From: an uncultured Bacilli bacterium
GTDB taxonomy: Bacteria; Bacillota_I; Bacilli_A; RF39; UBA660
Assembly: GCA_944329385.1 (NCBI GenBank)
Contig: CALVIE010000001.1
Location: 2,168-66,167 of the forward strand
Direction: 5' to 3'
Length of the DNA stretch: 64,000 nt
Part shown: piece after piece, positions 6,006 to 61,822 of the stretch
How the letters are laid out: the number at the start of each line of letters is the position of its first letter
Position numbering within the stretch: position 1 is the first letter of the stretch
Position numbers and translations under genes: made by a program
The notes under the pieces: generated by a model
Told to the model about the DNA's origin: nothing
What the model saw: the letters and a program-made list of their open reading frames with translations, nothing else
The model's database searches: none

Positions 6006-6905
6006 CTATTTGTTTTTAGAAATGCTTTTATAGATTTTATTCATGATTTCTGCCGTTTTTGCAAGTTTCGTTTCTAATTTATTATTTATTTCTTGCAATT
6101 TTTTATTATCAGCACAATATTTTTCATTTTCTTCTTTAAGATTTTTAATTTCGTTTTCTAAATTTTCTTTTTCATTTGTGATTTCATGATTTAGTTGATC
6201 TAGTTTTTCAATTTCTAATTGTAATTTTCTCACTTTTTCTTCTTTGGCGTCTATTTCATCTTGCATATTTTCATATTTATCCACAAAACTAGATACAGCT
6301 GATGTCATATCATCAAAATCAGTGTCTACTTTTTCTTCTTTTGATTCTGCTTTTTTAGGTGAAGTTTTTTCTGGTTTTAAAAGTTCTGGTTTTATTTCTT
6401 TTGGAGTTTGATTTAAATCTAAATCTTCCATAACATCTGAAAGATTATCGATTTCATCTAATAGACTTTCGGCTTCTTTTGGAGAAATTTTAACCATTTC
6501 ATCTACAAAGTCAGCTTCAAGTTCTTCTTTTGGCTCTTCTTTAATATCTTCTAAATATCTACCATAAACGTTTAATTCAGTGATTTTACTCATAACATCT
6601 TCAATACCAACGGCATATTTATTCATAAGATTACGAATATTTTTATCTTCAGTATAGGTATTTAAAAATTCATTATCGTCTGGTATTAAAATGTTAGCTC
6701 TGAACATTTGTTTTTCTTCTCTACCTTGCTCTCCATCACTAAAAGCAATATTCATATTATCGATGACTGCTTGAATGAACTCATTTTTCTTTTTTACAGC
6801 TTCATCGATTGGTAATTTTTTGAATGATTTGAATATTTTTTTGTTATCTTCTCTAATATCTTGTGCTAATTTCTTAATAGCTAAAAATCTTTCTTTTTCT
6901 AACAT
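6006..6905 (-). CDS. hypothetical coiled-coil protein
   Basis: Globular N-terminal roughly 120 aa, then an acidic linker, then a heptad-repeat C-terminus (EKENLENEIKNLKEENEKY). Terminator-like hairpin AAATAGGCTC/GAGCCTATTT at 5989-6011. Confidence 0.4.
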   Translation of the reverse strand: MLEKERFLAIKKLAQDIREDNKKIFKSFKKLPIDEAVKKKNEFIQAVIDNMNIAFSDGEQGREEKQMFRANILIPDDNEFLNTYTEDKNIRNLMNKYAVGIEDVMSKITELNVYGRYLEDIKEEPKEELEADFVDEMVKISPKEAESLLDEIDNLSDVMEDLDLNQTPKEIKPELLKPEKTSPKKAESKEEKVDTDFDDMTSAVSSFVDKYENMQDEIDAKEEKVRKLQLEIEKLDQLNHEITNEKENLENEIKNLKEENEKYCADNKKLQEINNKLETKLAKTAEIMNKIYKSISKNK

Positions 6906-6934
6906 ATTTCCACCTCTTTATTCTTTTACAATCT

Positions 6935-7492
6935 TTAAGCTCTTGAGTCATATTTGCCATCTTTAGTTGAAACAATGATTTTTTCGTTATCACTTATGAA
7001 TAGTGGTACTTTTACGGTAAGTCCATTTTCTAAGACAGCTTCTTTTGTAGCATTGGTTGCTGTATTTCCTTTGACAGCTGGTTCAGTTTGAGTTACTTGA
7101 TATTCGATTTTTTCTGGTAAGTTAATACCTAATACTTCACCTTTATAGAAAGACACTTCTACTTCTAAGCCCTCTTTTAAAAATTTTGCATTATCTCCTA
7201 AACTTTCTTTAGGTAGATCTATTTGTTCATAGGTTTCCATATTCATAAAATTATACATGTCACCATTACTATATAAAAATTGCATTGTTTTTTTCTCAAT
7301 TATAGCTTTTTCAAATTTAATATTTGTGTTGAATGTTTGTTCAATTGTTGAACCAGTTCTTAAATTTTTAAGTTTAATGCGGACAAAGGCAGGTCCTTTT
7401 CCTGGCTTAACGTGTAAGAATTCTAAAATTAAATAGATATTCCCATCAATTACAACTGTCATTCCATTTTTTATATCATTAATGTTTATCAT
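6935..7492 (-). CDS. efp: elongation factor P
   Basis: HVKPGKGPAFVRIKLKNLRTG and the overall EF-P pattern; 185 aa. Confidence 0.9.
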   Translation of the reverse strand: MININDIKNGMTVVIDGNIYLILEFLHVKPGKGPAFVRIKLKNLRTGSTIEQTFNTNIKFEKAIIEKKTMQFLYSNGDMYNFMNMETYEQIDLPKESLGDNAKFLKEGLEVEVSFYKGEVLGINLPEKIEYQVTQTEPAVKGNTATNATKEAVLENGLTVKVPLFISDNEKIIVSTKDGKYDSRA

Positions 7493-7507
7493 ACTTTACC
7501 TCCACGA

Positions 7508-7676
7508 ATTATTTTTTCTCATTGTGCTCTGTATGTTTCTGACACTTAGGGCAATATTTGTTTAACTTTAATCTTTCAGGCGTATTTCTTTTATTTTTTT
7601 CTACGCGGTAGTTTTCACTTTTACATACACTGCATACTAAAGTTATATTATCTCTAGCTTCGCCTTTTTTTGCCAT
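7508..7676 (-). CDS. rpmG: 50S ribosomal protein L33
   Basis: Not in the ORF track (55 aa). Reverse-strand translation gives MAKKGEARDNITLVCSVCKSENYRVEKNKRNTPERLKLNKYCPKCQKHTEHNEKK, with the two CxxC pairs and the KNKRNTPERL signature of L33. SD AAAGGAGGG lies 8 nt upstream. Confidence 0.8.
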
Positions 7677-7717
7677 AATATCCCTCCTTTTCGCATTTCT
7701 TATAATATTATATCAAA

Positions 7718-9808
7718 TTATGGGTAAATTTCAAAGTATTTTTTTGAAACTCGGTTAGTTAACCTTTTATTTATGGCTGATTGATGGTTTGAACGACCGT
7801 TTGGTACCGAAATGTTTGGCGAAACAACTGTGAATGTGACTTCTGGGTTATCATAAGGAGCATAAGCCACAAAAGTTGTACTGATAGTTTCAGTGTCTAT
7901 TTTTCCATCTTTGTTGGTATCAACAAAACTTTGGCTGGTTCCTGTTTTTCCGGCTGGTTTATAAGTCTTATCAATATATCCAACGCCTAAGCCATAGCTT
8001 GTAACTGCTTCAAATCCTTCTTTTACTCTATCGATATATTTTGCTTCAGTATCAACTTTATTTAATTCTTTTTTGTTTTGGTCATATGTCGTTTTATCGT
8101 TATAAAGGCCTTTATAGAGATATGGCCTCATTCTAGTGCCGTTATTAGCAATAGTACTAATATATTGTGATAGTTGGATTGGGGTATAATTATCATACTG
8201 ACCTATTGAAAAATCTAATAATAATCCTGAGGTGGTGTTTGTTCCTTTTAAGCCAGTTGTTTCATTTGGAAGATCAATGCCAGTTTTGACACCTAAGCCA
8301 AACTGGGCGAAGGTATTTCTATATATGTTAAAGGCTTCTTTATCAATAACTAATGGTTTATTATATTTATAATTTCCTTTACCAACTTTAATTGCAGTAT
8401 AGTACTGATAGGTGTTTGAAGATTGAGCTAAAGCTGTGATGTCATTTAATCTACCAAGATATTTCCATGAACATTTTTCTGGAGTAGCAGCTATTTTGAC
8501 ACAATTATCGTATCTTACTTCGCCTATTTTTAAAGCACCGGTATTATATCCAACAATATGGCTAGCACCTTTGACGACTGATCCCATAACTGCTGTTGAC
8601 TGGGTAATTCCAGCGGTAAAATCTATGGTACTATAAGAACCATCATCATTTTGTTTTAATTGTTTTCCAGCCATAGCCAATATTTCACCTGTTTTAGGGT
8701 TAGTAACTACGACGAATGAGCCATTATAATATTCTGTGTTAGCTTCTTTTTTGGCATTTATAACTTCTTCGGTTAATATTTCTTCTAAGGCTTTTTGAAG
8801 TTCAATGTCAATTGTTAGGACAATGTCATTACCTCTTTTACCTTCTTCTAGGAGTTTATATGAGCCATCGTTCATGACTTGGTACTTATTTTTTTTACCT
8901 TTTAAAATATCTTCATACATATATTCTAGGTTACTAGTTCCTACTCTATCATCTAGACTATAACCTTTTTTTAAATATTCATCTTTGAGTTCGGCAGGGA
9001 TTCCACTTTTACTTGATGAAACGTTGCCCAAGATACTTTTAAAAACATTACCATAAGGATAGGTTCTTTCCCAGTCTAATTTAGTATTTATTCCTTTTAA
9101 TTCACTTAAGTTTTCTGAAACTAAAGCATATTCTTCGTCGGTGACGTTTTCATTTTTGATGGTTTTTTCGTCATATGAATAACCGGTATTCATAAGGGTA
9201 TATATATAAGCTGCTTTTTTGTCTAGTTCATTATATATTGCTAGTTCTTCTTCAGTTACTCTTTCAATTTTCAAATTATAAATTTCATCACTTGTGAGTT
9301 TTCTTTCATCTAATTTTTGCCATTCTTCATCAGTTATCTTTTTATTTGCTTCTTTTGGATGATTTTTTATCCAAAAGTTTTTGAAATCATAGTCATTTAA
9401 TTTTATTTCAAGGTTTATCATATTTGCAAGTTTATAGGCTGTTTTGATTTCTTCTTCGGTGGTTATGCCTGATGGCTTTTTATAGTATATTACTTTAGAG
9501 GGAATATTATCGACAATGAGTTTACCATTTCTATCATAAATTCTTCCTCTTGGAGCAGTTTCACCATAGATTACTGTTTTGGTAAGGTTTTCTAATTTTT
9601 TACTATATTTTTCTTTTCCAACCACTTGAATTAAAAATAGTGATGTGACTAGTATTAAAAGAGCTAAAACAATTAAAAATGTTAATATGTTATAACGTTT
9701 TTCTATTTCAATTTTAATGTCTTTATTTTCTTTATAAGAATTGAAATTATAGTTTGGTTTTCTTTGTTTTTTAGAAACTTTTAATGCTTTTGGTTTTTTC
9801 TTTTTCAA
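7718..9808 (-). CDS. class B penicillin-binding protein (PBP2B/SpoVD-like transpeptidase)
   Basis: N-terminal TM anchor, a PBP dimerisation region and a transpeptidase domain with the KTGT motif (PAGKTGTSQ); 696 aa. Confidence 0.8.
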   Translation of the reverse strand: MKKKKPKALKVSKKQRKPNYNFNSYKENKDIKIEIEKRYNILTFLIVLALLILVTSLFLIQVVGKEKYSKKLENLTKTVIYGETAPRGRIYDRNGKLIVDNIPSKVIYYKKPSGITTEEEIKTAYKLANMINLEIKLNDYDFKNFWIKNHPKEANKKITDEEWQKLDERKLTSDEIYNLKIERVTEEELAIYNELDKKAAYIYTLMNTGYSYDEKTIKNENVTDEEYALVSENLSELKGINTKLDWERTYPYGNVFKSILGNVSSSKSGIPAELKDEYLKKGYSLDDRVGTSNLEYMYEDILKGKKNKYQVMNDGSYKLLEEGKRGNDIVLTIDIELQKALEEILTEEVINAKKEANTEYYNGSFVVVTNPKTGEILAMAGKQLKQNDDGSYSTIDFTAGITQSTAVMGSVVKGASHIVGYNTGALKIGEVRYDNCVKIAATPEKCSWKYLGRLNDITALAQSSNTYQYYTAIKVGKGNYKYNKPLVIDKEAFNIYRNTFAQFGLGVKTGIDLPNETTGLKGTNTTSGLLLDFSIGQYDNYTPIQLSQYISTIANNGTRMRPYLYKGLYNDKTTYDQNKKELNKVDTEAKYIDRVKEGFEAVTSYGLGVGYIDKTYKPAGKTGTSQSFVDTNKDGKIDTETISTTFVAYAPYDNPEVTFTVVSPNISVPNGRSNHQSAINKRLTNRVSKKYFEIYP

Positions 9809-9859
9809 TTTTTGTCACCTCACTTTGTTTTAAAACATATTTTATTATAGGGGGAATTT

Positions 9860-10123
9860 ATGCATAAATTATTTATTGAAAGATATATTAAACAAATTAA
9901 GAAGGATGATATTTTAAAGTTTGGAATTCAAAATGATATTTATTTATCAAATAATCAGCTTGATATATTATACCACTATTTAAATGAGTTTTGGGAAGAT
10001 ATTTTGTATGGAGATAGGGAAAAAGTTTTTTTGGATATGAAAAAAAGGTTTGATGAAGATACTTTTTTTAAGATGAAAAATTTATTTGATGAGTATTTCG
10101 AGCGTTATAGAGATATTTTATAG
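9860..10123 (+). CDS. hypothetical small protein (87 aa)
   Basis: Open reading frame with an RBS (GGGGGAATTT ATG); no recognisable motif. Its 3' end overlaps the convergent nfo stop. Confidence 0.3.
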   Translation: MHKLFIERYIKQIKKDDILKFGIQNDIYLSNNQLDILYHYLNEFWEDILYGDREKVFLDMKKRFDEDTFFKMKNLFDEYFERYRDIL

Positions 10124-11028
10124 TAATTTTGAATATCTTTGATGAGGTTTTGATTAATTTTTTTATTTTTTATCATTTCTATTTCAAATTTATATGGTGG
10201 ATATGTTCTATCTTGACCATTATTTATACTTACGTAAGGAGTTTCTAATATTTTAGGGACTTTTTTTAATTTTTCGTTATATATTATTTTAATAAGATTT
10301 TCAAAGCCAATTGTTCCAAGGCCAATATTCTCATGGCGGTCTTTATGCGATGATTTAATGTTTTTACTATCGTTTATATGAATGCAGGCAATTTTATTTA
10401 TTCCAATTATTTGATCAAAGCTATCTAATAGTTCGTCAAAATTTGTTAGGTCATATCCGGCATCGTTTAGATGACAAGTGTCCAAACATACTTTTACTCT
10501 TTCTTTATTATTTATGCCGTTTATGATAGTTTTAATTTCTTCAAAGTTTTTTCCTAGTTCACTACCTTTTCCAGCCATAGTTTCTAAACAGATGATGGGG
10601 CCTTTTTTGTTTTCTAAAATAATATTTAAAGCGTTTATAATATTATTTAAACCTTTTTCAGTACCTAAGCCAACATGACTTCCTGGATGAAGGACAATTT
10701 TATTTATGCCTAGAATTTGAGCTCTTTGGAGTTCTTGTTTTAAAAAATTTATGGAGAAGTTATATTTGTTTTCATCTTTATTATTAGCTAAGTTTATAAT
10801 ATAAGGAGCGTGAATGATGACATTATTTATATCAATATTGTTTTCTTGCATAAGTTTTTTAGCTAAAGCTGTTTTTTCTTCATCGATTTTTGATCTTTTA
10901 GTGTTTTGAGGAGCACCAGTATAAAACATAAATGTGTTTGCATTATAGCTTAATGCTTCTTTAACACTTTTTAGTAAACCATCATTTTTGGTATAAGATA
11001 CATGTGAACCGATTATTAATTTTTCCAT
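10105..11028 (-). CDS. nfo: endonuclease IV (deoxyribonuclease IV)
   Basis: Motifs HAPYIINLA, HPGSH and CLDTCH, the metal-binding residues of the TIM-barrel Nfo family. Confidence 0.9.
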   Translation of the reverse strand: MEKLIIGSHVSYTKNDGLLKSVKEALSYNANTFMFYTGAPQNTKRSKIDEEKTALAKKLMQENNIDINNVIIHAPYIINLANNKDENKYNFSINFLKQELQRAQILGINKIVLHPGSHVGLGTEKGLNNIINALNIILENKKGPIICLETMAGKGSELGKNFEEIKTIINGINNKERVKVCLDTCHLNDAGYDLTNFDELLDSFDQIIGINKIACIHINDSKNIKSSHKDRHENIGLGTIGFENLIKIIYNEKLKKVPKILETPYVSINNGQDRTYPPYKFEIEMIKNKKINQNLIKDIQNYYKISL

Positions 11029-11065
11029 ATGAAATCACCTAGAAATATAATACCACATTTCTAGG

Positions 11066-11398
11066 TTACTCGCCTACTAAATCACTTAAAACTTTAAAAC
11101 TTCCGTTAATTAGTTTTTGAATGACTTTTTCTGCTGCGTTAGATATTGTAAGTCCGGTTTTGGAAACAGTGTTTTGGTAGTTTTGGTTATTGGTGTCAAT
11201 GTAATCTTCGATGTCAATGTTTTTACCGGCTTTGACATCTTTTTCAAATTTTTCTATTTGACTATTGGTTAGAGCCACTTTTTTACTATTACGATATTCA
11301 AAGTAACCTGTACTTTGTGAAAGATATAGGGCAAAAAAAGTAACGAAGCTTATAAAAATGGCATATCTAAATATTTTATTTAGTTTTTTATGTTTCAT
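11066..11398 (-). CDS. small membrane protein, YqxA-like (follows spoIIP as in B. subtilis)
   Basis: N-terminal TM helix, 110 aa, overlaps the spoIIP stop. The call is by synteny only. Confidence 0.35.
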   Translation of the reverse strand: MKHKKLNKIFRYAIFISFVTFFALYLSQSTGYFEYRNSKKVALTNSQIEKFEKDVKAGKNIDIEDYIDTNNQNYQNTVSKTGLTISNAAEKVIQKLINGSFKVLSDLVGE

Positions 11399-12353
11399 TT
11401 ACATAGCTTGCGAATATAGGGGCGATTAATTCAATGGTGTTTAAAACCTCGTCAATGGTGTTTTCTTCGCCACCTATTTCAATTAAAATAATATTTGGAT
11501 TTAAATCTTGGTTATATATGCCATTTGAACCTTCTCCTTTTTTGGTTATGACTCCTCTTGTTAAAGTAGGATATTTTTGTTTTATTTGATTATTGATATT
11601 ATTTGTTACGTTTAAGTTATAATTATAATTTTTATGTTCTAAACCTACAACAAAGGATATTTTGGCACACGATTTATTATTAATGATAACTGTTGATTTA
11701 TCTTTGGATAGTGCATCTCTGTGTAGGTCAATAATCAATTTATAATTTTGATAATTATTCAAAGCGTTTTGTAGAAATGTTCTGCTTGCTTGATAACTTT
11801 TACTATATTTCATATTATTTAGATTCAAATAATCGGTTATATTATCTTCCATGACATCGGCTTTGATATTATTTTCGGCTAATTTATCTTGCAAGATATA
11901 GGATGCCATCATTACACCTGGGGTTATATTATAACCTTCTAAGGCTTTACCTTGATAGGCTTCAGTTTGATGAGTATTATAGATATAGACTGATGGTTTA
12001 AGGTTAAGGCTTTTGACATTTTCTATATTAGGGTTATTTACAAAAGTCATATTTTTTTTGCTAGTTTTGAAGTGTATGGTGTTTTCTAAGATAGAAATAG
12101 GTTCATTAACATCTAATATTTTAGAAAATAATTTGGTAAAAATATCACTAGATTTTTTTTCATATAAAAGATGATAGTTAGAGTCAGCCATTAAGGCTTT
12201 TAGAAATTCTTCATTTGAATCAACTAATTTTATATTCATGATGACATTAAAGGATAATTCATAGCCTAAAAACATGATAAAGGCATAAAAAATTAATCTA
12301 AATTTGAATTTTCTTTTTTTCTTTAGTTTGACTTTTTTCATTTTATCCCTCAC
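11388..12353 (-). CDS. spoIIP: stage II sporulation protein P (SpoIIP-family amidase-like)
   Basis: N-terminal TM, then YIYNTHQTEAY and IIDLHRDA motifs characteristic of SpoIIP, and its position directly after gpr. Confidence 0.75.
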   Translation of the reverse strand: MRDKMKKVKLKKKRKFKFRLIFYAFIMFLGYELSFNVIMNIKLVDSNEEFLKALMADSNYHLLYEKKSSDIFTKLFSKILDVNEPISILENTIHFKTSKKNMTFVNNPNIENVKSLNLKPSVYIYNTHQTEAYQGKALEGYNITPGVMMASYILQDKLAENNIKADVMEDNITDYLNLNNMKYSKSYQASRTFLQNALNNYQNYKLIIDLHRDALSKDKSTVIINNKSCAKISFVVGLEHKNYNYNLNVTNNINNQIKQKYPTLTRGVITKKGEGSNGIYNQDLNPNIILIEIGGEENTIDEVLNTIELIAPIFASYVNET

Positions 12354-14863: not shown

Positions 14864-15808
14864 TTATGATTCAATGATAAATGGATTTGTTTTACTACCA
14901 TATCCACTTAACTGTAATCCTGATTTTATGTGAACTACTGGGAAAGATGTTTCATAGGGATTATTACTCATCCTTACAGTTGTTAATGATCCTAAGTAAA
15001 AAACCCAATGATAATCATTGTTATCTTTATAATGATTTAGCAGCCATCCAAGACTGGGAATACCCCAACCTTTATTTGACACATAATTTATCCAAGTAGT
15101 ACCACCACAATTTGAACCGTAATAACTTACATTATTTGGAAAATTAGCGCAGGCTAATCTGGTATTTGTTCTAAGGAATTCTGTAACAGTGAGTATCGCT
15201 ACTTTTCCGTTCCATTTACTTGTTTTTTCGCTTTGAACAGCCAATTGCAAATTTGTTTCTGTTTTAGTACCTAAATTACCTACATTGAAATTTCTAGCAA
15301 CTATTAAATTTTTTGCTGTAGTAGAAAGATTATTATAATATGTTCCATTTAAATATGTATTTACGTTTGAGTTAGTCCAAGTGGTGTTTCCCCAAGAAGT
15401 AGTATTAGTACTACTTGATGCTCCAGTTTCAGTTAAATTTATAATTTTCATTGTTCCGTCTTTTTCTATTGATAGTATTCGCCATTCTTCATTGTTAAAT
15501 GTAATATAATTATCTACATAATTGCCTCTATAAATATATCTACCTTCTTCATATTCATCCGCATATAGTCCAGATCCAGTTGTAACTACTAAATCTTTTA
15601 ACTTAGAAGAAGTTATAGTTGAACTATCAGCTTTTTTGTAAAGTTCATCTATAGCATCTTGAACATTGGTTGCATTAAGTCCACTTGCTTTATTATCATA
15701 TGTTGTTTGATTTGACGGAAAATATGTTACAGCCGATATGCTTACTGTTCCAACAATTATTGCTGTTAATAGGCATAAAAAGCATCTATTTTTTAAAATT
15801 TTTTTCAT
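14864..15808 (-). CDS. secreted paralog-family protein P1 (divergent member; DUF6273-like core?)
   Basis: Signal peptide/TM, then the conserved block VTYFPSNQTTYDNKASGLNATNVQDAIDELY shared with 39399..40328, 44795..45741, 59484..60437 and the remnant at 30304..30606. The middle is N/T/S/W/Y-rich, and the C-terminus GSKTNPFIIES is related to the GDGSxNPY end of the other copies. Confidence 0.6.
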   Translation of the reverse strand: MKKILKNRCFLCLLTAIIVGTVSISAVTYFPSNQTTYDNKASGLNATNVQDAIDELYKKADSSTITSSKLKDLVVTTGSGLYADEYEEGRYIYRGNYVDNYITFNNEEWRILSIEKDGTMKIINLTETGASSSTNTTSWGNTTWTNSNVNTYLNGTYYNNLSTTAKNLIVARNFNVGNLGTKTETNLQLAVQSEKTSKWNGKVAILTVTEFLRTNTRLACANFPNNVSYYGSNCGGTTWINYVSNKGWGIPSLGWLLNHYKDNNDYHWVFYLGSLTTVRMSNNPYETSFPVVHIKSGLQLSGYGSKTNPFIIES

Positions 15809-30303: not shown

Positions 30304-30606
30304 ATGGATATTTAGAAAAGTGGTTAGTTTTTTAAAAAGAATATTTTAGGTATTATTATTGGTGGAGTAATATTTGGAAGTTTAGGTGTTTGTGCGGCCA
30401 CCTATTTTCCTAGTAATAATGTAACATACGAAAACAAAAATAGTGGTTTAAAAAGTACTGATGTCCAAGGGGCGATAGATGAACTTTATACAGCTTGCTC
30501 AGAGCTAGCGACTCCGCCAACTCTAGGTGATACAATACTAGAAGATGTGCCAATAGTATCGTCAGGCGATGGTTCTCAAGAGAATCCATTTAATATTTCT
30601 TTATGA
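30304..30606 (+). pseudogene. degenerate remnant of the secreted paralog family, with N- and C-terminal conserved blocks fused and in-frame stops near the start
   Basis: ATG GAT ATT TAG ... then GIIIGGVIFGSLGVCAATYFPSNNVTYENKNSGLKSTDVQGAIDELYTACSELATPPTLGDTILEDVPIVSSGDGSQENPFNISL*. A 67-nt block at 30424-30489 is about 99% identical to P2 at 40151-40217. Confidence 0.5.
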
Positions 30607-30636
30607 TATGCAAAAACAAGTCTAAATTGACTTGTT

Positions 30637-39398: not shown

Positions 39399-40328
39399 TT
39401 ATTCAATGCGATAAGGATTATTTTGCGAGCCATCGCCCCCAGTGATTTTAATTTTACTAGACAAATATACGGATGGACGGACTGCAACCGTTTCATTATT
39501 GAGAACATAAGTGCCGCCACCAGCAGAAGTAATAATGAACCCGTTGTAATTGATACCACGACGAGGTGATAACGTCCACCAGCTACTAATATTATTACTT
39601 TGCATCCATGTTGTATTCATACAATTCCTATTTTCTTCATTTGATGCAAATGTTCTACAGCTGCTATTACTATTACTTCTTATATATTCACTCATTGTTA
39701 TTAAGGCAACTTTTCCGTTCCACTTACTACTATTTTCATATGTTATTTGTGAACTCATACTTGATTCAGCATAATTAATAGCTCCTATACTCCAATTTTT
39801 TGAAACAATCTGTCCTTGGGCTGTCTGATTCAAAGTTTCTGTTAAGTAACTTCCATTTAAATACGTGTTCAAATCGGATGGGCGTGCCCAGTTATTTGAG
39901 CCATTGGCTCCTCCTCCTTCATCCCACGCCATATTTCCTATACTTGCTTCTCTCATTATTTTTATGGTTTTATCATTTTCAATAGATACTATTCTCCATA
40001 TCTCATTATTAAATATTATATAATTATTTGGGTTTGTTCCTCTATAAAAATATCTATCTTCATATTCATCTTTATATAAACCATCACCAGATGACACTAT
40101 ATCCACTTTGTCAAGTATTGCTTCTCCTCCTGTTTTAGGTAAACATACATTATAAAGTTCATCTATCGCGCCTTGGACATCAGTACTTTTTAAACCACTA
40201 TTTTTGTTTTCGTATGTTACTAAATTACTATCAAAATATGTTACTGCTGATACTACTGATATACATATTAAAAAACTAAGTGTTAGTCCTATCATATATT
40301 TTTTTATAAATTCTTTTATTTTTTTCAT
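39399..40328 (-). CDS. secreted paralog-family protein P2 (best intact copy)
   Basis: MKKIKEFIKKYMIGLTLSFLICISVVSA signal, then VTYFDSNLVTYENKNSGLKSTDVQGAIDELY; core with FYRGTNPNNYIIFNNEIWRIVSIENDKTIKIM, KWNGKVALITMSEYIRSNSN and SWWTLSPRRG; C-terminus VRPSVYLSSKIKITGGDGSQNNPYRIE. Confidence 0.6.
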   Translation of the reverse strand: MKKIKEFIKKYMIGLTLSFLICISVVSAVTYFDSNLVTYENKNSGLKSTDVQGAIDELYNVCLPKTGGEAILDKVDIVSSGDGLYKDEYEDRYFYRGTNPNNYIIFNNEIWRIVSIENDKTIKIMREASIGNMAWDEGGGANGSNNWARPSDLNTYLNGSYLTETLNQTAQGQIVSKNWSIGAINYAESSMSSQITYENSSKWNGKVALITMSEYIRSNSNSSCRTFASNEENRNCMNTTWMQSNNISSWWTLSPRRGINYNGFIITSAGGGTYVLNNETVAVRPSVYLSSKIKITGGDGSQNNPYRIE

Positions 40329-43656: not shown

Positions 43657-44556
43657 TTAATCAGTAGTTTTTAATTTTTGAATATCTGTTTCAGTTAGAT
43701 TTGTTAATCTAGAAATAGTTTTAATATCCATTTTCTCTTTAAGCATGTTTTTAGCTATTTGAATATTTCTTTCATTGATACCTTGCTTAACTCCTTGTTC
43801 AAAACCTTCTTGTTTGGCACCTTCCATTTCATTTTGTTTAACTAAAGCGTCCATCTTATCCTTTTGCCATTCATGTAATATAAATTCATCATTATTCATC
43901 TTTATCATAGTCTCCATTAATCTATTAACCTCTTTTTCATCAAGTATCTGCCTAGATAACTCATATAGTTCACTAAATGTTTGTGCTATAAGCATCGTAT
44001 ACCATATAATTTCTTTTGTTTTAACACCTTCATTATAATATAGTTTACTATAAAGTTCAAGGCTCTTTAAAAATATCCTTTTATTACTAGGATAGACTTT
44101 TTGAGTGAGTAATCCATATGGGACAATGATGTCTTCTAGATCTTCTTCAAATGGACTTATATTAAGATTAAGCTGAATATTGTTTATTTCTTTTATACTT
44201 TTTCCTTTTTCAAATATTATGGTCGCTATTTTATCTAAATAATTAAAATTTCTTTCCATTACATACTCAAATTTACTTCTATTCATCTCTATATCAATAA
44301 AGATTTTATCATTAATAGATACAATAATATCCACCATTTTTTTACGTTCATTTTTATTAGTTATAGGATGTTCACTATCCAAAATTCTAATTTTATCATC
44401 TTTAGATATTTCCATTTTTAAACTGGCATTTAATAAATCTACAAGTAAGTTTAAATTTAATTTAAAAACGTTTTTAAAAACAAGGTCATAAGATAAAGGT
44501 ATCATATCTAATTTTTCATCTAACTTTAATAAATATTCTTTAGTTATTGTTTCCAT
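43657..44556 (-). CDS. Rpn-family recombination-promoting nuclease / putative transposase (PD-(D/E)XK), copy 2
   Basis: DLVFKNVFKLNLNLL...DIIVSINDKIFIDIEMNRSKF core; C-terminal EGAKQEGFEQGVKQG repeats and the tail IAKNMLKEKMDIKTISRLTNL, nearly identical to copy 1. Confidence 0.7.
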   Translation of the reverse strand: METITKEYLLKLDEKLDMIPLSYDLVFKNVFKLNLNLLVDLLNASLKMEISKDDKIRILDSEHPITNKNERKKMVDIIVSINDKIFIDIEMNRSKFEYVMERNFNYLDKIATIIFEKGKSIKEINNIQLNLNISPFEEDLEDIIVPYGLLTQKVYPSNKRIFLKSLELYSKLYYNEGVKTKEIIWYTMLIAQTFSELYELSRQILDEKEVNRLMETMIKMNNDEFILHEWQKDKMDALVKQNEMEGAKQEGFEQGVKQGINERNIQIAKNMLKEKMDIKTISRLTNLTETDIQKLKTTD

Positions 44557-44717
44557 ATATCTCCTTTCTTTGCCCCTTTATATATAAACATACGGCGAAA
44601 ATAATGATTTTCCTTTTTTTATATGAAAAAAATTTAAAAATCTAGTATGTTTTTAATTTACACACTAGATTTTATACACCCTCGAATCGGTATTCTATAT
44701 TGTGGAAAAAGCGACCC

Positions 44718-44752
44718 CACACCTCTAAATGAGGTGTGAGGGCTTTTACAAA
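44718..44752 (-). terminator. rho-independent terminator downstream of P3
   Basis: 10-bp stem CCCACACCTC/GAGGTGTGGG with loop TAAAT. On the minus-strand RNA it is followed by CGCUUUUUCC. Confidence 0.55.
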
Positions 44753-44794: not shown

Positions 44795-45741
44795 TTATCC
44801 TAAAGTATATGGGCTTGATGAACTTCCATTTCCTCCTGTAATTTGGACACTAGACGATAGATAGACGGCCGGACGGACCGCACCGGTCGTATTGTTAGCG
44901 TAGACGTAGTTGACGTAGCCGTACGAAAGCACGCCGAACACGTAGTTAGAGTCACCGGCAAGAGGCGACAAAGTCCACCAATAGTCATTTATATACATCC
45001 AGCTGCTATTTTGACATGTACTATAATTATCATTTATTTTACTAAATGTTCCACAGCTACTTTGATTACTATTACTTCTTAGATATTCACTCATTGTTAT
45101 TAGGGCTACTTTTCCATTCCATGTTGTTGCTTTCTCATCATCTATTTGATCTCCCAAGTTATTATTATCCCATGTTGCTGAACCTATATTCCAATTTTTT
45201 GCAACAATTTGGCTTTGGGCTGTCGCATTTAATGTTCCTGTCAAATAACTTCCATTTAAATATGTATTCAAATCGGCTGGACGTTTCCAGTTATTGGAAC
45301 CATAGGTTCCTCCTCCTGCATCCCATGCTATATCCCCTATACTTGCATTCCTCATTATTTTGATTGTTTTATCTGGCTCTATTGACACTATTCTCCATAC
45401 CTCATTATTAAATGTTATATACTTATTTACATTGGCTCCTCTATAAAAATATCTTCCTTCTTCATAAGTATCTTCGTATAATCCGTCACCTGATGTTACT
45501 ATATCTACACTGTCTAAGATAGTATCCCCAGGAGCTGGGACTTTTGTACATTCTTCGTATAGTTCATCTATGGCTTCTTGGACATTTTTTGAAGCAAGAC
45601 CACTTGATTTATTTTCATAACTAACATCTTTTGAATTAAATGTTACTGTGGCATATACGCCTATGCTGCCAAATAGTATTAGTCCTATGACAAAACTTAT
45701 TAGATTTTTTTCACATAATATTTCATTTTTTCTTTCTTCAT
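44795..45741 (-). pseudogene. secreted paralog-family protein P3, interrupted by a frameshift in an A7 tract within the signal-peptide region (candidate phase-variable OFF state)
   Basis: ATG AAG AAA GAA AAA ATG AAA TAT TAT GTG AAA AAA ATC TAA. With A8 the frame continues as MKKEKMKYYVKKNLISFVIGLILFGSIGVYATVTFNSKDVSYENKSSGLASKNVQEAIDELYEE...FYRGANVNKYITFNNEVWRIVSIEPDKTIKIM... into the listed 44795..45388 ORF, which ends with YWWTLSPLAGD...VRPAVYLSSSVQITGGNGSSSSPYTLG. Confidence 0.5.
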
Positions 45742-45851
45742 TGTACTTTCTCCTATTTTTAATTTTTTCTTAGTTTTATTATATCATATTTTTGTCCTAA
45801 TAGGACAAAAATATTCATTTTAATTAAGCTATCATTTAATTAGGTGATAAC

Positions 45852-46088
45852 ATGGATGATAATTTAAGCAATTATTACTGCAATTTAGTTAAGAAAAATT
45901 TAAAGAGATTAAAAAATGAAAGAAATTGGAGCATTACTAAAATGGCTTTAGTTTTAGGACTTAGTGAAAGTTATTTAGGACATTTACTTAGTTTAAAATC
46001 GCCTAAAACTCCATCTATTCAATTACTTGGGGCAATTTGTGGAAGAGCAAATGTTCAAATTACTTATTTTTTTGAAAACGAAAAATAG
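45852..46088 (+). CDS. HTH (XRE-like) DNA-binding protein
   Basis: WSITKMALVLGLSESYLGHLLSLKSP is a helix-turn-helix; the gene is divergent from P3 across an intergenic region containing a 29-bp perfect palindrome. Confidence 0.5.
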   Translation: MDDNLSNYYCNLVKKNLKRLKNERNWSITKMALVLGLSESYLGHLLSLKSPKTPSIQLLGAICGRANVQITYFFENEK

Positions 46089-46100
46089 ACCATTTGGGGT

Positions 46101-46811
46101 CTATTTTATTTTAAGAACAAGTTTTTTTACATCTTCATCTTTGACTGATTCGGTTAAGGACATTCCTTTTAAACTTTTATAAAATCCACACATAGTGTTT
46201 GTTTCAATGTTTGAACGCTGTTTTAAAAATTCGGCAAAGCTGTCATAGTCTTGTGAGTTAATAAAATCATAGTATTCATCAGTATCTTCTTTAGTAATAA
46301 TTACTGGAGCTAGTCCTTCTTTCCAAAGATTAGCTGTTAAAATTAGTTTCGCACTTCTTTTATTACCATCTTCTAGCGGATGAATACGCATATATTTAAT
46401 GTTAAACATGGCTTCTCTTAGGAATGGATCTATTTCGTTCCAAGTATGATAATATTGATAAAACAACATATTTAAGGCGTTTGGTATTTGGTTTGGAGCA
46501 ATTGGATCAAATGTGGCTTTAGTACCAGCTGTGACACCAATACGTCTTAAGCCTTTTGGCACTTCATAACTTTCGTTAATAATATTGCCTACTGTTTTAA
46601 TATTTCCTAAGTTTAAATAATCAGTGTCACAAATCAGATAAGAAAGTGCTTCTAGGATATTTAACATTAAATGAGTACGTTGTTCTGGGTTTAAATCTTC
46701 TAATTCAGCTACACTATAGACAAAACGTTCTACAAAGAAATTAGTATATCTTTCTACTATAGATTGATCTGTTATTTGTGGATTTTCATTTATGATTAGT
46801 TCTTCTGACAT
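46101..46811 (-). CDS. Fic/Doc (Fido) family protein
   Basis: HPLEDGNKRSAKL matches the Fic active-site motif HPFx(D/E)GNGR (HPxxDGNxR). Confidence 0.8.
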   Translation of the reverse strand: MSEELIINENPQITDQSIVERYTNFFVERFVYSVAELEDLNPEQRTHLMLNILEALSYLICDTDYLNLGNIKTVGNIINESYEVPKGLRRIGVTAGTKATFDPIAPNQIPNALNMLFYQYYHTWNEIDPFLREAMFNIKYMRIHPLEDGNKRSAKLILTANLWKEGLAPVIITKEDTDEYYDFINSQDYDSFAEFLKQRSNIETNTMCGFYKSLKGMSLTESVKDEDVKKLVLKIK

Positions 46812-59483: not shown

Positions 59484-60437
59484 TTATTTAGAACTTAATT
59501 GATACGGATTATCCTGGCTTCCATCTCCTCCGGTAATTTGGACTGATGATGAAAGTGTTACTACAGGTCGAACACCATAGCTACTTGAATAATTAGAATT
59601 AATGTGTCCGGAACTATCCACACGGTATGCATAACTTCCACTCATGATTGACAGTGTCCACCATGAATCATTTATATACATCCAACTAGTACTTTGACAC
59701 TTAGTATAATTATTATTATTTATATAAAAGGTTCCACAGTTACTTTTATCACTATTACTTCTTATATATTCCGAAACTGTTGCTAAAGCAACTTTCCCAT
59801 TCCACTTTTTATTGTTTTCAACATTTATTTGATTTTCTAAATCTGTATTAAAATTTCCTACAGGTCCTATACTATAATCGCTTGTAATTATTTGATTTTG
59901 GGCTACGCTAGTTAAATTATTATAATATGTTCCATTTAAATATGTATTTAATGTGGCTGGGCGAGTCCAATTATTATTATTTGATGAATCCCATTCCATG
60001 TTTTCTATACTTTCATATTTCATTATCTTGATACTTCCATCTGAATTTATAGATATAATTCTCCAACCAGCAATTTCTCCATTAAAGGTTACATAATTAT
60101 TTGGATTTGCTCCTTTATATGTATATTTTCCATTTTCATATTCATCTTCATATAAGCCATTTCCTTCTGTTACTATATCTATCTCGTCTAATATTGCATC
60201 TCCACCTGTTTTAGGCGGAAAACATACATTATAAAGTTCATCTATGGCTGTTTGAATATTATTTGATGTCATTCCTGTTGTTTCATTACTATATGTTACA
60301 TTTTTACTATCAAAATATGTTATAGCTGATACTGCTGATATACATATTAAGAAACTAAATGGTGTAGGATAAAGGGAATTAAAGTTACAATGGAAAAGAA
60401 AAAAAGTTAGAAATAGATGTTCATTATGGAACATCAA
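59484..60437 (-). CDS. secreted paralog-family protein P4 (altered N-terminus, in an operon with upstream membrane proteins)
   Basis: ...SFLICISAVSAITYFDSKNVTYSNETTGMTSNNIQTAIDELY; core with KYTYKGANPNNYVTFNGEIAGWRIISINSDGSIKIM, KWNGKVALATVSEYIRSNSD and SWWTLSIMSGS; C-terminus VRPVVTLSSSVQITGGDGSQDNPYQL. The N-terminus lacks the MKK n-region of P2 despite near-identical DNA from TTAATATGTATATCAG onward. Confidence 0.6.
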   Translation of the reverse strand: MMFHNEHLFLTFFLFHCNFNSLYPTPFSFLICISAVSAITYFDSKNVTYSNETTGMTSNNIQTAIDELYNVCFPPKTGGDAILDEIDIVTEGNGLYEDEYENGKYTYKGANPNNYVTFNGEIAGWRIISINSDGSIKIMKYESIENMEWDSSNNNNWTRPATLNTYLNGTYYNNLTSVAQNQIITSDYSIGPVGNFNTDLENQINVENNKKWNGKVALATVSEYIRSNSDKSNCGTFYINNNNYTKCQSTSWMYINDSWWTLSIMSGSYAYRVDSSGHINSNYSSSYGVRPVVTLSSSVQITGGDGSQDNPYQLSSK

Positions 60438-60442
60438 AATAC

Positions 60443-61822
60443 CTAACTTTTTTTATACTTAAATTTATAGGTTACGTCTAATTTATAGTTTTCATTTGAT
60501 GCGAATTCTGGAATAGACATTTTTACTTCTTCTTCAAATTCTTTTCTAGTTAAAGGATTTTTTAAGACTTTTAATGATATCATTTCATATTGTGTTCGAA
60601 ATCTAGTCATTATTTTTCTTTCTTCTAGACGATATTCTTGGTTTGCTGCATTAACATCGCTTTCTGGTTCCCAGTTTGTTGGATTGCCTAGAACTTCAGT
60701 TTCTCTATCTTTATATGGTTGGTTTTTTGGAGCTGTTGATTTTTCACTGCTATATTTTCTTTTTGTTCCATTATACCAGCGCCACTGTTTATCTTTATAA
60801 CGATATAGTGTTGCAGTATCTTCATCTTTTTGATCATATTTATCAGTGTTTACTTCTTCTCTTGCACTATATTTTCCACTATTATAATATATTTTTTCGC
60901 CTTTTTCATTTAAATAATAAAATTTATATCCTGTCGTTTGGGTTATGGTTCTATAATCTTTTTCGGCTGGATAATTTAATGAATATTCTGACCAGTTGGT
61001 TTCTATTTCACTATTTTCATCTTTATTTGCATAACCAGCAGGTTGCTCTGATGAAAAATCTGAATAATCACCTTTAATATCATACCATTTCCAACGGCGG
61101 TCGCGATAACGATAGTAGTATGTACTGTCACTTTCAATATTAATTATTTTAGCTTCGGTTGGTATTTTTGGAATATCTTCCATATCCATTGGTAATCTAA
61201 TACCATATTCAGATATTTCATCTTGCAGTTCGCTATCATCAAAATAATCTGACCACTTTGTTGTACTTACTTCACGATCATAATAATTATAATATGGTAT
61301 AACATCAATTATAGCTTTACCAGACGGATATGATGATTGTTCACTACTCCAAGAGCCATATTTTACATTTACAGAACATTGTCCGCAGTTTCTAGCATTT
61401 ACAGTATATATGTAATCTTTTTTATATTTGGTAATTTTAATATCTCCTGAACATACTTGATTATCAGTTTTTCCAGTATTTATATAACCGTCATCATACA
61501 TATCATTTAATTGTATTGTGACACTTTCTCCTTCTAAATTTGGAACGGTTCCTTCATCTTTAGCATAGTTTAAGCTAGCAGATTTTAAATTATTATAGAT
61601 TTTTAAGCAGCCATTATTTTTAAAAGCGGTAACAACAATTATAATAATTATTACTATTGGTAAAATAGTTCCAAAGACAAAGAAAAAGTTTAATATAGGC
61701 TTTTTGCTTTCGAAGCTTCTATCAACGATATTTCCTTCTTTATCGACGTAAGTCTGTCGTTTCATGATATCACCCCTTGTATAATATAATTTTAGCACAT
61801 TTAAGTATATTTTCAAATACAA
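60443..61822 (-). CDS. hypothetical single-pass membrane protein with repeated YRY(R/K)D(R/K)xW(K/R)WY motifs
   Basis: Probable start MKRQTYVD; TM at about aa 45-66; two copies of YRYRDRRWKWY / YRYKDKQWRWY; 6-nt gap to the P4 start. Confidence 0.5.
   Translation of the reverse strand: MYLKIYLNVLKLYYTRGDIMKRQTYVDKEGNIVDRSFESKKPILNFFFVFGTILPIVIIIIIVVTAFKNNGCLKIYNNLKSASLNYAKDEGTVPNLEGESVTIQLNDMYDDGYINTGKTDNQVCSGDIKITKYKKDYIYTVNARNCGQCSVNVKYGSWSSEQSSYPSGKAIIDVIPYYNYYDREVSTTKWSDYFDDSELQDEISEYGIRLPMDMEDIPKIPTEAKIINIESDSTYYYRYRDRRWKWYDIKGDYSDFSSEQPAGYANKDENSEIETNWSEYSLNYPAEKDYRTITQTTGYKFYYLNEKGEKIYYNSGKYSAREEVNTDKYDQKDEDTATLYRYKDKQWRWYNGTKRKYSSEKSTAPKNQPYKDRETEVLGNPTNWEPESDVNAANQEYRLEERKIMTRFRTQYEMISLKVLKNPLTRKEFEEEVKMSIPEFASNENYKLDVTYKFKYKKS

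Follow-up and report, generated by a model that had tools for sequence, protein, structure and literature searches.

DUF6273 has been described as C-type-lectin-like, and in targets of diversity-generating retroelements (DGRs) the variable region (VR) lies at its C-terminal end, as in the targets of Faecalibacterium prophages and the phage 'tentaclins' (PMC11792537, PMC10743442). The gene described here, P3, resembles these phage proteins in that it also encodes a DUF6273 protein with the VR at the C-terminal end, its variation is adenine-specific and falls almost entirely on codon positions 1 and 2, its inferred template is rich in AAC/AAT, and its modelled structure is similar to phage DUF6273 proteins. 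In contrast to the phage targets, P3 is chromosomal, belongs to a scattered family and has its own Sec-type signal peptide, and it has neither a phage sequence match nor a template (TR), Avd or reverse transcriptase (RT) nearby; unlike the tail or receptor-binding targets of phages, its family is present in at least 4–5 copies per 64 kb. Among solved structures, the closest to P3 is the N-terminal DUF6273 domain of the IgA peptidase of Thomasclavelia ramosa (PDB 9qa6), likewise a secreted protein of a gut Bacilli member (PMC12402451). It shares 18% identity with P3, from which it differs by being joined to an M64 peptidase and beta domains, and it is not reported to have a variable region or DGR.

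P3 lies in the window (the whole 64-kb stretch of DNA that was analysed, with a GC content of 28.4%) and is interrupted near its start by a 1-nt frameshift in a poly(A) tract, a situation that recalls a second group of described systems. Contingency loci built on poly-G, poly-C or poly-A are known from surface-protein genes of Neisseria, Haemophilus, Campylobacter, Helicobacter and Mycoplasma, and their tracts typically exceed the genomic background, are conserved among strains and are length-polymorphic within populations. As in these loci, the frame of P3 is toggled by a 1-nt change in a 5′ homopolymer, whereas the P3 tract itself is background-like and not conserved. The features of the locus are collected in Table 1.

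Table 1. Features of P3 and its surroundings, of its paralogs in the window, and of homologous copies on other contigs (L-numbers). Positions without an L-number refer to the window.
Feature	Position	Strand	Details
Intrinsic-terminator-like hairpin and T-run	44715..44741	-	11 pairs, 7 GC; 54 nt past P3 stop
P3 body in shifted frame	44795..45706	-	303 open codons and stop
DGR VR block	44855..44980	-	codons 255-296; scaffold common to five homologs
VR 3′ end GCGGTCCGTCCGGCC	44867..44881	-	GC-rich, IMH-like
Variable codons of VR	44882-44962	-	
Truncated P3 frame	45700..45741	-	13 codons, MKKEKMKYYVKKI; start ATG 45741-45739, stop TAA 45702-45700; ATG ... GTG AAA AAA ATC TAA
A7 tract	45705..45711	-	Lys-Lys codons, signal-peptide n-region; T7 on plus strand, bordered by A and C; A8 would restore frame
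Shine-Dalgarno AGGAGAAAG	45746..45754	-	4 nt upstream of ATG, spacer TACA; strong; read from sequence
Extended -10-like TGATATAAT	45778..45786	-	putative, inferred from sequence
Palindrome ATATTTTTGTCCTAATAGGACAAAAATAT	45786..45814	.	perfect, 13-bp arms; overlaps putative -35
-35-like TTGTCC hexamer	45803-45808	-	putative; 19-nt spacer to -10-like
XRE/HTH_3 regulator gene	45852..46088	+	78 aa; divergent from P3
PD-(D/E)XK_2 (Rpn-like transposase/nuclease) gene	43657-44556	-	downstream of P3
Fic-domain gene	46101-46811	-	upstream of P3
Paralog	14864-15808		36% identity to P3
Remnant	30304-30610	+	adjoins polC; N-terminal module fused to last 13 codons
Paralog	39399-40328		58% identity to P3
Paralog	59484-60437	-	52% identity to P3; normal Lys-rich n-region and start lost
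Broken copy	L006:1898-2823		GG->G frameshift
Broken copy	L015 328-1258		10-bp tandem duplication (CAATGTCCAA x2)
Broken copy P0088			out-of-frame internal deletion
Broken copy	L001:10959-11153		64-aa N-terminal-only ORF
Tract site, intact copies	L001:10001, L008		AAA AAA AAT (A8)
Tract site, intact copies	L005, L006:976		AAG AAA AAT (A5)
Tract site, intact copy	L001:11166		AAA AAG AAC (A6)
Tract site, intact copies	L006:4889, L007, L009		AGA AAA AAT (A6)

Re-reading of the DNA returned the A7 tract at 45705–45711 and the codons GTG AAA AAA ATC TAA just as the initial annotation had given them, within the short frame ATG AAG AAA GAA AAA ATG AAA TAT TAT GTG AAA AAA ATC TAA. As that annotation had claimed, insertion of one A into the tract restored a 315-aa ORF (MKKEKMKYYVKKNLISFVIGLILFGSIGVYATVTFNSKD...), which ends at 44795, while deletion of one A (A6) left the frame broken. 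Downstream of the tract the gene continues in the -1 frame relative to the ATG, and no canonical start codon was found in that frame upstream of GTG 45388, which opens the 197-aa ORF (P0016) called by the source assemblies; the single base is therefore the sole visible lesion of P3. The remainder of the gene, comprising promoter-like elements, ribosome binding site, ATG, 303 codons and terminator, was found intact, in agreement with the claim that a 1-nt difference in poly(A) length alone disables it. Its body takes in the h-region of the signal peptide, a helical module at the N-terminal end and the DUF6273 (C-type-lectin-like) domain. To describe the tract as lying inside the signal peptide is fair, given that the N-terminal n-region of the protein is rich in Lys and gives way to a hydrophobic stretch (Kyte–Doolittle approximately 2.1, residues 14–32). 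The pristine state of the rest of P3 is equally expected from a reversible switch or from a base-calling error. While the 1-nt poly(A) lesion was thus borne out, its interpretation as slipped-strand phase variation gained no support from the comparisons described below.

The nature of the gene can be read from the VR block close to its 3′ end, which has a GC content of approximately 55% compared to 28% in its surroundings. Relative to the homologous copy in L001, the window shows 20 nt differences within the block, distributed 11/9/0 over the three codon positions, and the differences in the rest of the gene are distributed 32/18/50. Across six homologous VRs (window, L001, L006:4889, L007, L008 and L009) the variable sites fell 16/14/3 by codon position (n = 33), and the 54 invariant positions comprised 16 T, 15 G, 23 C and no A at all, as against 44% A at the invariant positions upstream. 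The complete lack of invariant adenines, together with the codon positions of the variable sites, indicates that every template adenine has been randomised, and almost nothing else. By this indirect test, P3 has a 3′ VR whose variable positions correspond to template adenines only; it also has the DUF6273/C-type-lectin-like fold with the VR near the C-terminus. The pattern is the hallmark of DGR mutagenic retrohoming, and the identity of P3 as a DGR target is well supported. No other family copy in the window has the GC-rich VR scaffold that P3 shares with the retroelement-diversified homologs.

Placing A at the variable positions of the VR scaffold gave an inferred cognate template of about TTGTCGCCTAATGCCAGTAACTCTAACAACGTGTTCAACGTGAATTCGAACGGCAACGTCAACAACAACAACGCTAACAATACGAACAATGCGGTCCGTCCGG, with the translation ...SNNVFNVNSNGNVNNNNANNTNNAVRP..., and a peptide search with this translation returned short ORFs of exactly that sequence; real homologous templates read NSNNVFNVNSNGNVNNNNANNTNNAV. 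No second VR copy or template repeat was found in the 64-kb window or in L001–L009, no ORF with a YxDD-motif RT was present in the window, and neither template, Avd nor RVT_1 was detected in the window or at a distance of up to 10 kb from eight homologous loci. Since no template or RT lies nearby, the cassette acting on P3 would have to sit elsewhere in the genome, with P3 as a remote target, or else P3 would be a recent relic. The VR-scaffold pattern gave no matches in viral_contigs or metagenome_contigs, an alignment search with the P3 family found nothing in viral_contigs, and blastn and tblastn against phage genomes yielded no matches.

Cassettes with a DUF6273-like target, a TR, a 126-aa ORF, bAvd and an RVT_1 reverse transcriptase are present in L010–L013, from related gut 'Bacilli'. 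In L010, from gut-metagenome contigs, a complete chromosomal cassette spans 6297–10051, with the TR called as a 62-aa ORF and an RVT_1 protein of 353 aa. The L010 TR differs from its own VR at 20 of 34 adenines and at none of the 75 other bases, and the first 13 nt of GCGGTCCGTCCGGCC are identical in its TR and VR. This cassette belongs to the same TR/VR class as P3 and has the same 3′ boundary (GCGGTCCGTCCGG), whereas organism and genomic context are different. The L010 template was tried as the cognate of P3 and rejected on account of non-adenine differences and a one-codon length difference. In L014 (1–800), the 3′ end of a target gene reappears in part, as a second copy, approximately 120 nt further on. 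This copy is Asn-rich and template-like but has non-adenine differences and indels; no RT was found in the 6 kb downstream, and the copy may represent a template that has degenerated or been displaced.

In protein terms, P3 matches PF19789 (DUF6273) with an E-value of 3e-7 over residues 147–296, above the gathering score, and the Pfam match recurs in all three full-length paralogs of the window. The confident AlphaFold2 model (pLDDT 87.8, 64 homologs) combines a globular domain with a small helical module and an N-terminal helix, the last being the signal peptide or membrane anchor. Among solved structures the model matched 9qa6 best (Foldseek E 2.3e-8, probability 1.00, 284 aligned columns), and its best viral matches were gut-phage DUF6273 proteins (E 1.8e-10). 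A search of 5.8 billion proteins with the repaired P3 protein returned 1042 homologs, the closest intact one being that of L001 (83% amino acid identity), with no homolog at or above 90% identity except the truncated ORF itself; a scan of genome_contigs retrieved relatives at only 50–58% identity, in 'uncultured Bacilli' MAGs. In one such MAG, a complete 1.54-Mb assembly (L004), a 1260-aa ORF (7859–11641) holds three tandem DUF6273-like segments matching P3 residues 64–314, 88–314 and 81–314, a putative multi-domain architecture of the P3 family.

We consider it somewhat more probable than all other outcomes taken together, at roughly 55%, that P3 has suffered a recent, unprogrammed A8→A7 slippage lesion in a redundant DGR-target paralog. 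P3 is one of a multi-copy set of secreted or membrane-anchored DUF6273 proteins, and its C-terminal approximately 30 codons are a variable region written by a DGR. Replication slippage in AAA AAA AAT (Lys-Lys-Asn, in the signal-peptide n-region) would have deleted one A, translation would stop after 13 codons, and the P3 protein would not be made. The gene would then be a young pseudogene, at most stochastically revertible, in a redundant family that often loses copies, and its tract would be no dedicated phase-variation switch. The direction of the change is given by L001, whose A8 tract has flanks identical to those of P3; measured against this intact state, the window allele has lost 1 nt. 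We infer, moreover, that the A7 base call is real, that the slippage event was recent and that it was not selected.

That the closest homolog has A8 would also be seen if the genome truly read A8, with P3 intact and the A7 introduced during assembly or consensus calling. The source is apparently a metagenome-assembled contig, homopolymer length being the commonest consensus error, and the truncated 197-aa ORF is known from a single 72.5-kb contig (NCBI and ENA); single odd lesions in family copies from low-coverage metagenome scaffolds could be artefacts in the same way. The neighbouring protein P0131 has a 100% identical counterpart in Logan and ENA contigs, so that the strain occurs elsewhere as well. 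Set against this, none of the 107 other coding runs of at least seven A in the window disrupts its ORF. PolC (1497 aa), RNase R, RF1, PrmC, pyruvate kinase, Fpg, FtsE and FtsX all matched their Pfam profiles over most or all of their length, and a scan in which every homopolymer of the window was lengthened or shortened by one base brought up no long gene interrupted at such a run. With these eight housekeeping genes not visibly frameshifted and no long ORF split, the assembly is evidently not riddled with homopolymer errors, and together with the undisrupted 107 runs this places the per-tract error rate well under 1%. The absence of other frameshifted housekeeping genes, on which the initial annotation had relied, therefore holds as tested; its corollary that a random assembly error is less likely agrees with the eight genes and the clean scan, though an artefact keeps some of the probability, and we regard it as unlikely.

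One further run, the A7 at 60448–60454, was considered as a second frameshift, as one additional A would fuse 60443–61822 to the paralog at 59484–60437 (792 codons). It was rejected: of the 202 homologs found for the upstream protein, the 120 listed are approximately 440 aa long, a few shorter partial matches aside, and none of them carries DUF6273. The possible fusion is a coincidence.

Evolved slipped-strand phase variation, in which the tract would toggle P3 between ON (A8) and OFF (A7) at high frequency on top of DGR hypervariation, would explain several features of the locus. The lesion is located where contingency tracts classically occur, at the 5′ end of a gene for a hypervariable surface protein, and a single-base homopolymer change there toggles the frame; the ON length is present in L001 and the OFF length in the window; and P3 is otherwise intact and the sole window copy with a DGR-type VR scaffold. 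The properties of the tract itself argue otherwise. The window contains 133 A7/T7, 31 A8/T8 and 2 A9/T9 runs (166 of at least 7 nt), and the coding strands of its 49 intact ORFs of at least 150 aa contain 83 A7, 23 A8 and 1 A9. The P3 tract is thereby one of 108 coding runs of seven or more A, the other 107 being located in intact ORFs, and is no more than chance gives in the window; a tract of 7–8 nt is indistinguishable from more than 100 coding runs in 64 kb. AAA accounts for 1727 of 1869 Lys codons (92%) and AAG for 7.6%, and since both Asn codons start with AA, the default spelling of Lys-Lys-Asn is A8. In the intact ORFs of at least 150 aa, however, this tripeptide is spelled AAG-AAA-AAY in 5 of 11 cases, compared to the 7.6% AAG background. 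This suggests that the source genome, through selection against coding A8 runs, tends to avoid them in Lys-Lys-Asn contexts and does not recruit them. Signal-peptide n-regions are Lys-rich by nature, and every family copy examined has one or two A5–A8 runs within its first 70 nt.

The homologous copies point in the same direction. Comparison of the DNA of eight intact copies having the ...(K/R)KN(L/I) site showed that a G (AAG or AGA) interrupts the tract in six of them, and the homopolymer at this position is not conserved. Gain or loss of one unit does change the frame (A7, stop after 13 codons; A8, 315 aa), as in a contingency locus, while the tract is not distinct from the repeat background of the genome and the repeat is not conserved in orthologs or paralogs (A8 in two of the eight intact copies). 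Neither an ON allele nor a second OFF allele of P3 was found among the 5.8 billion proteins and in the contig scans, the tract-allele pattern ATGAAATATTATNTNANAAAAN{0,4}TCTAATAAG had no matches in metagenome_contigs, and the searched databases contained no allele series. In addition, the other broken copies of the family are not broken at repeats, and the candidate second tract at 60448–60454 is not a frameshift. The comparative evidence, as far as these sequences go, leans against phase variation, which we judge to be distinctly unlikely.

The P3 protein might also be produced from the A7 allele by recoding, either with ribosomes slipping into the -1 frame on G AAA AAA A or with transcriptional slippage adding an A to the mRNA. 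As read from the sequence, the downstream frame is indeed -1 and AAA AAA would permit re-pairing of the Lys-tRNA. In AT-rich bacteria, moreover, both RNA polymerase and ribosomes are known to slip on poly(A) runs; for efficient transcriptional slippage, though, seven A's are too few. At the tract site every intact homolog is in frame, so the frameshift is not conserved, and the elements that stimulate recoding were missing around P3: no stimulatory RNA structure was found near the tract (folding z = -0.02) and no internal SD-like element upstream of it. With homologs in frame and no RNA structure near the tract, recoding was rejected as the main explanation and is highly improbable.

The preferred reading, that of an unprogrammed lesion, is consistent with the fate of other family members (Table 1), which have been broken by a frameshift, a tandem duplication, deletions and the loss of an N-terminus. 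In the remnant adjoining polC, the N-terminal module is retained through 'SSGDG' and joined to 'GSQENPFNISL*', the whole DUF6273 domain being deleted, and in-frame TAG stops and a frame change are present near the start. The paralog with 52% identity to P3 begins directly after the stop of the upstream gene and is probably N-terminally damaged. Among the broken copies, P3 alone has its lesion within a homopolymer of 7 nt or more. This variety of lesions is apparently that of a birth-and-death paralog family, and not of regulation through a common repeat.

The frameshift itself is a minor matter: in AT-rich genomes no kind of lesion, or of error, is commoner, and the gene affected is redundant. 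The DGR-target identity of P3 is more informative than the frameshift, although the system is of a known type. What is gained is a re-annotation, from a truncated 197-aa hypothetical protein to a DGR-diversified, secreted lectin-like protein, and the description of a large, scattered family whose copies are repeatedly gained and lost in uncultured gut Bacilli. The results suggest that, in an uncultured gut Bacilli lineage, binding proteins of the cell surface are acted on by a chromosomal multi-target DGR. Were P3 a true contingency gene, which is very unlikely, its short poly(A) would give stochastic ON/OFF expression of the one DGR-diversifiable lectin-like surface protein of the region, and this lineage would layer phase variation over retroelement hypervariation of a single protein. 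A mixture of A7 and A8, if ever shown, would make P3 a rare case of on/off switching combined with DGR hypervariation.

Upstream of P3, the putative -35/-10 pair was omitted by a consensus promoter scan since its spacer exceeds 18 nt. The palindrome overlapping the putative -35 element and the divergent HTH_3 gene look like a candidate operator–repressor pair for P3. HTH_3 genes also border the family copy in L005. The PD-(D/E)XK_2 and Fic-domain genes flank P3 on its downstream and upstream sides, respectively, and in L005 and L010, too, Fic genes lie near family copies or the DGR cassette.
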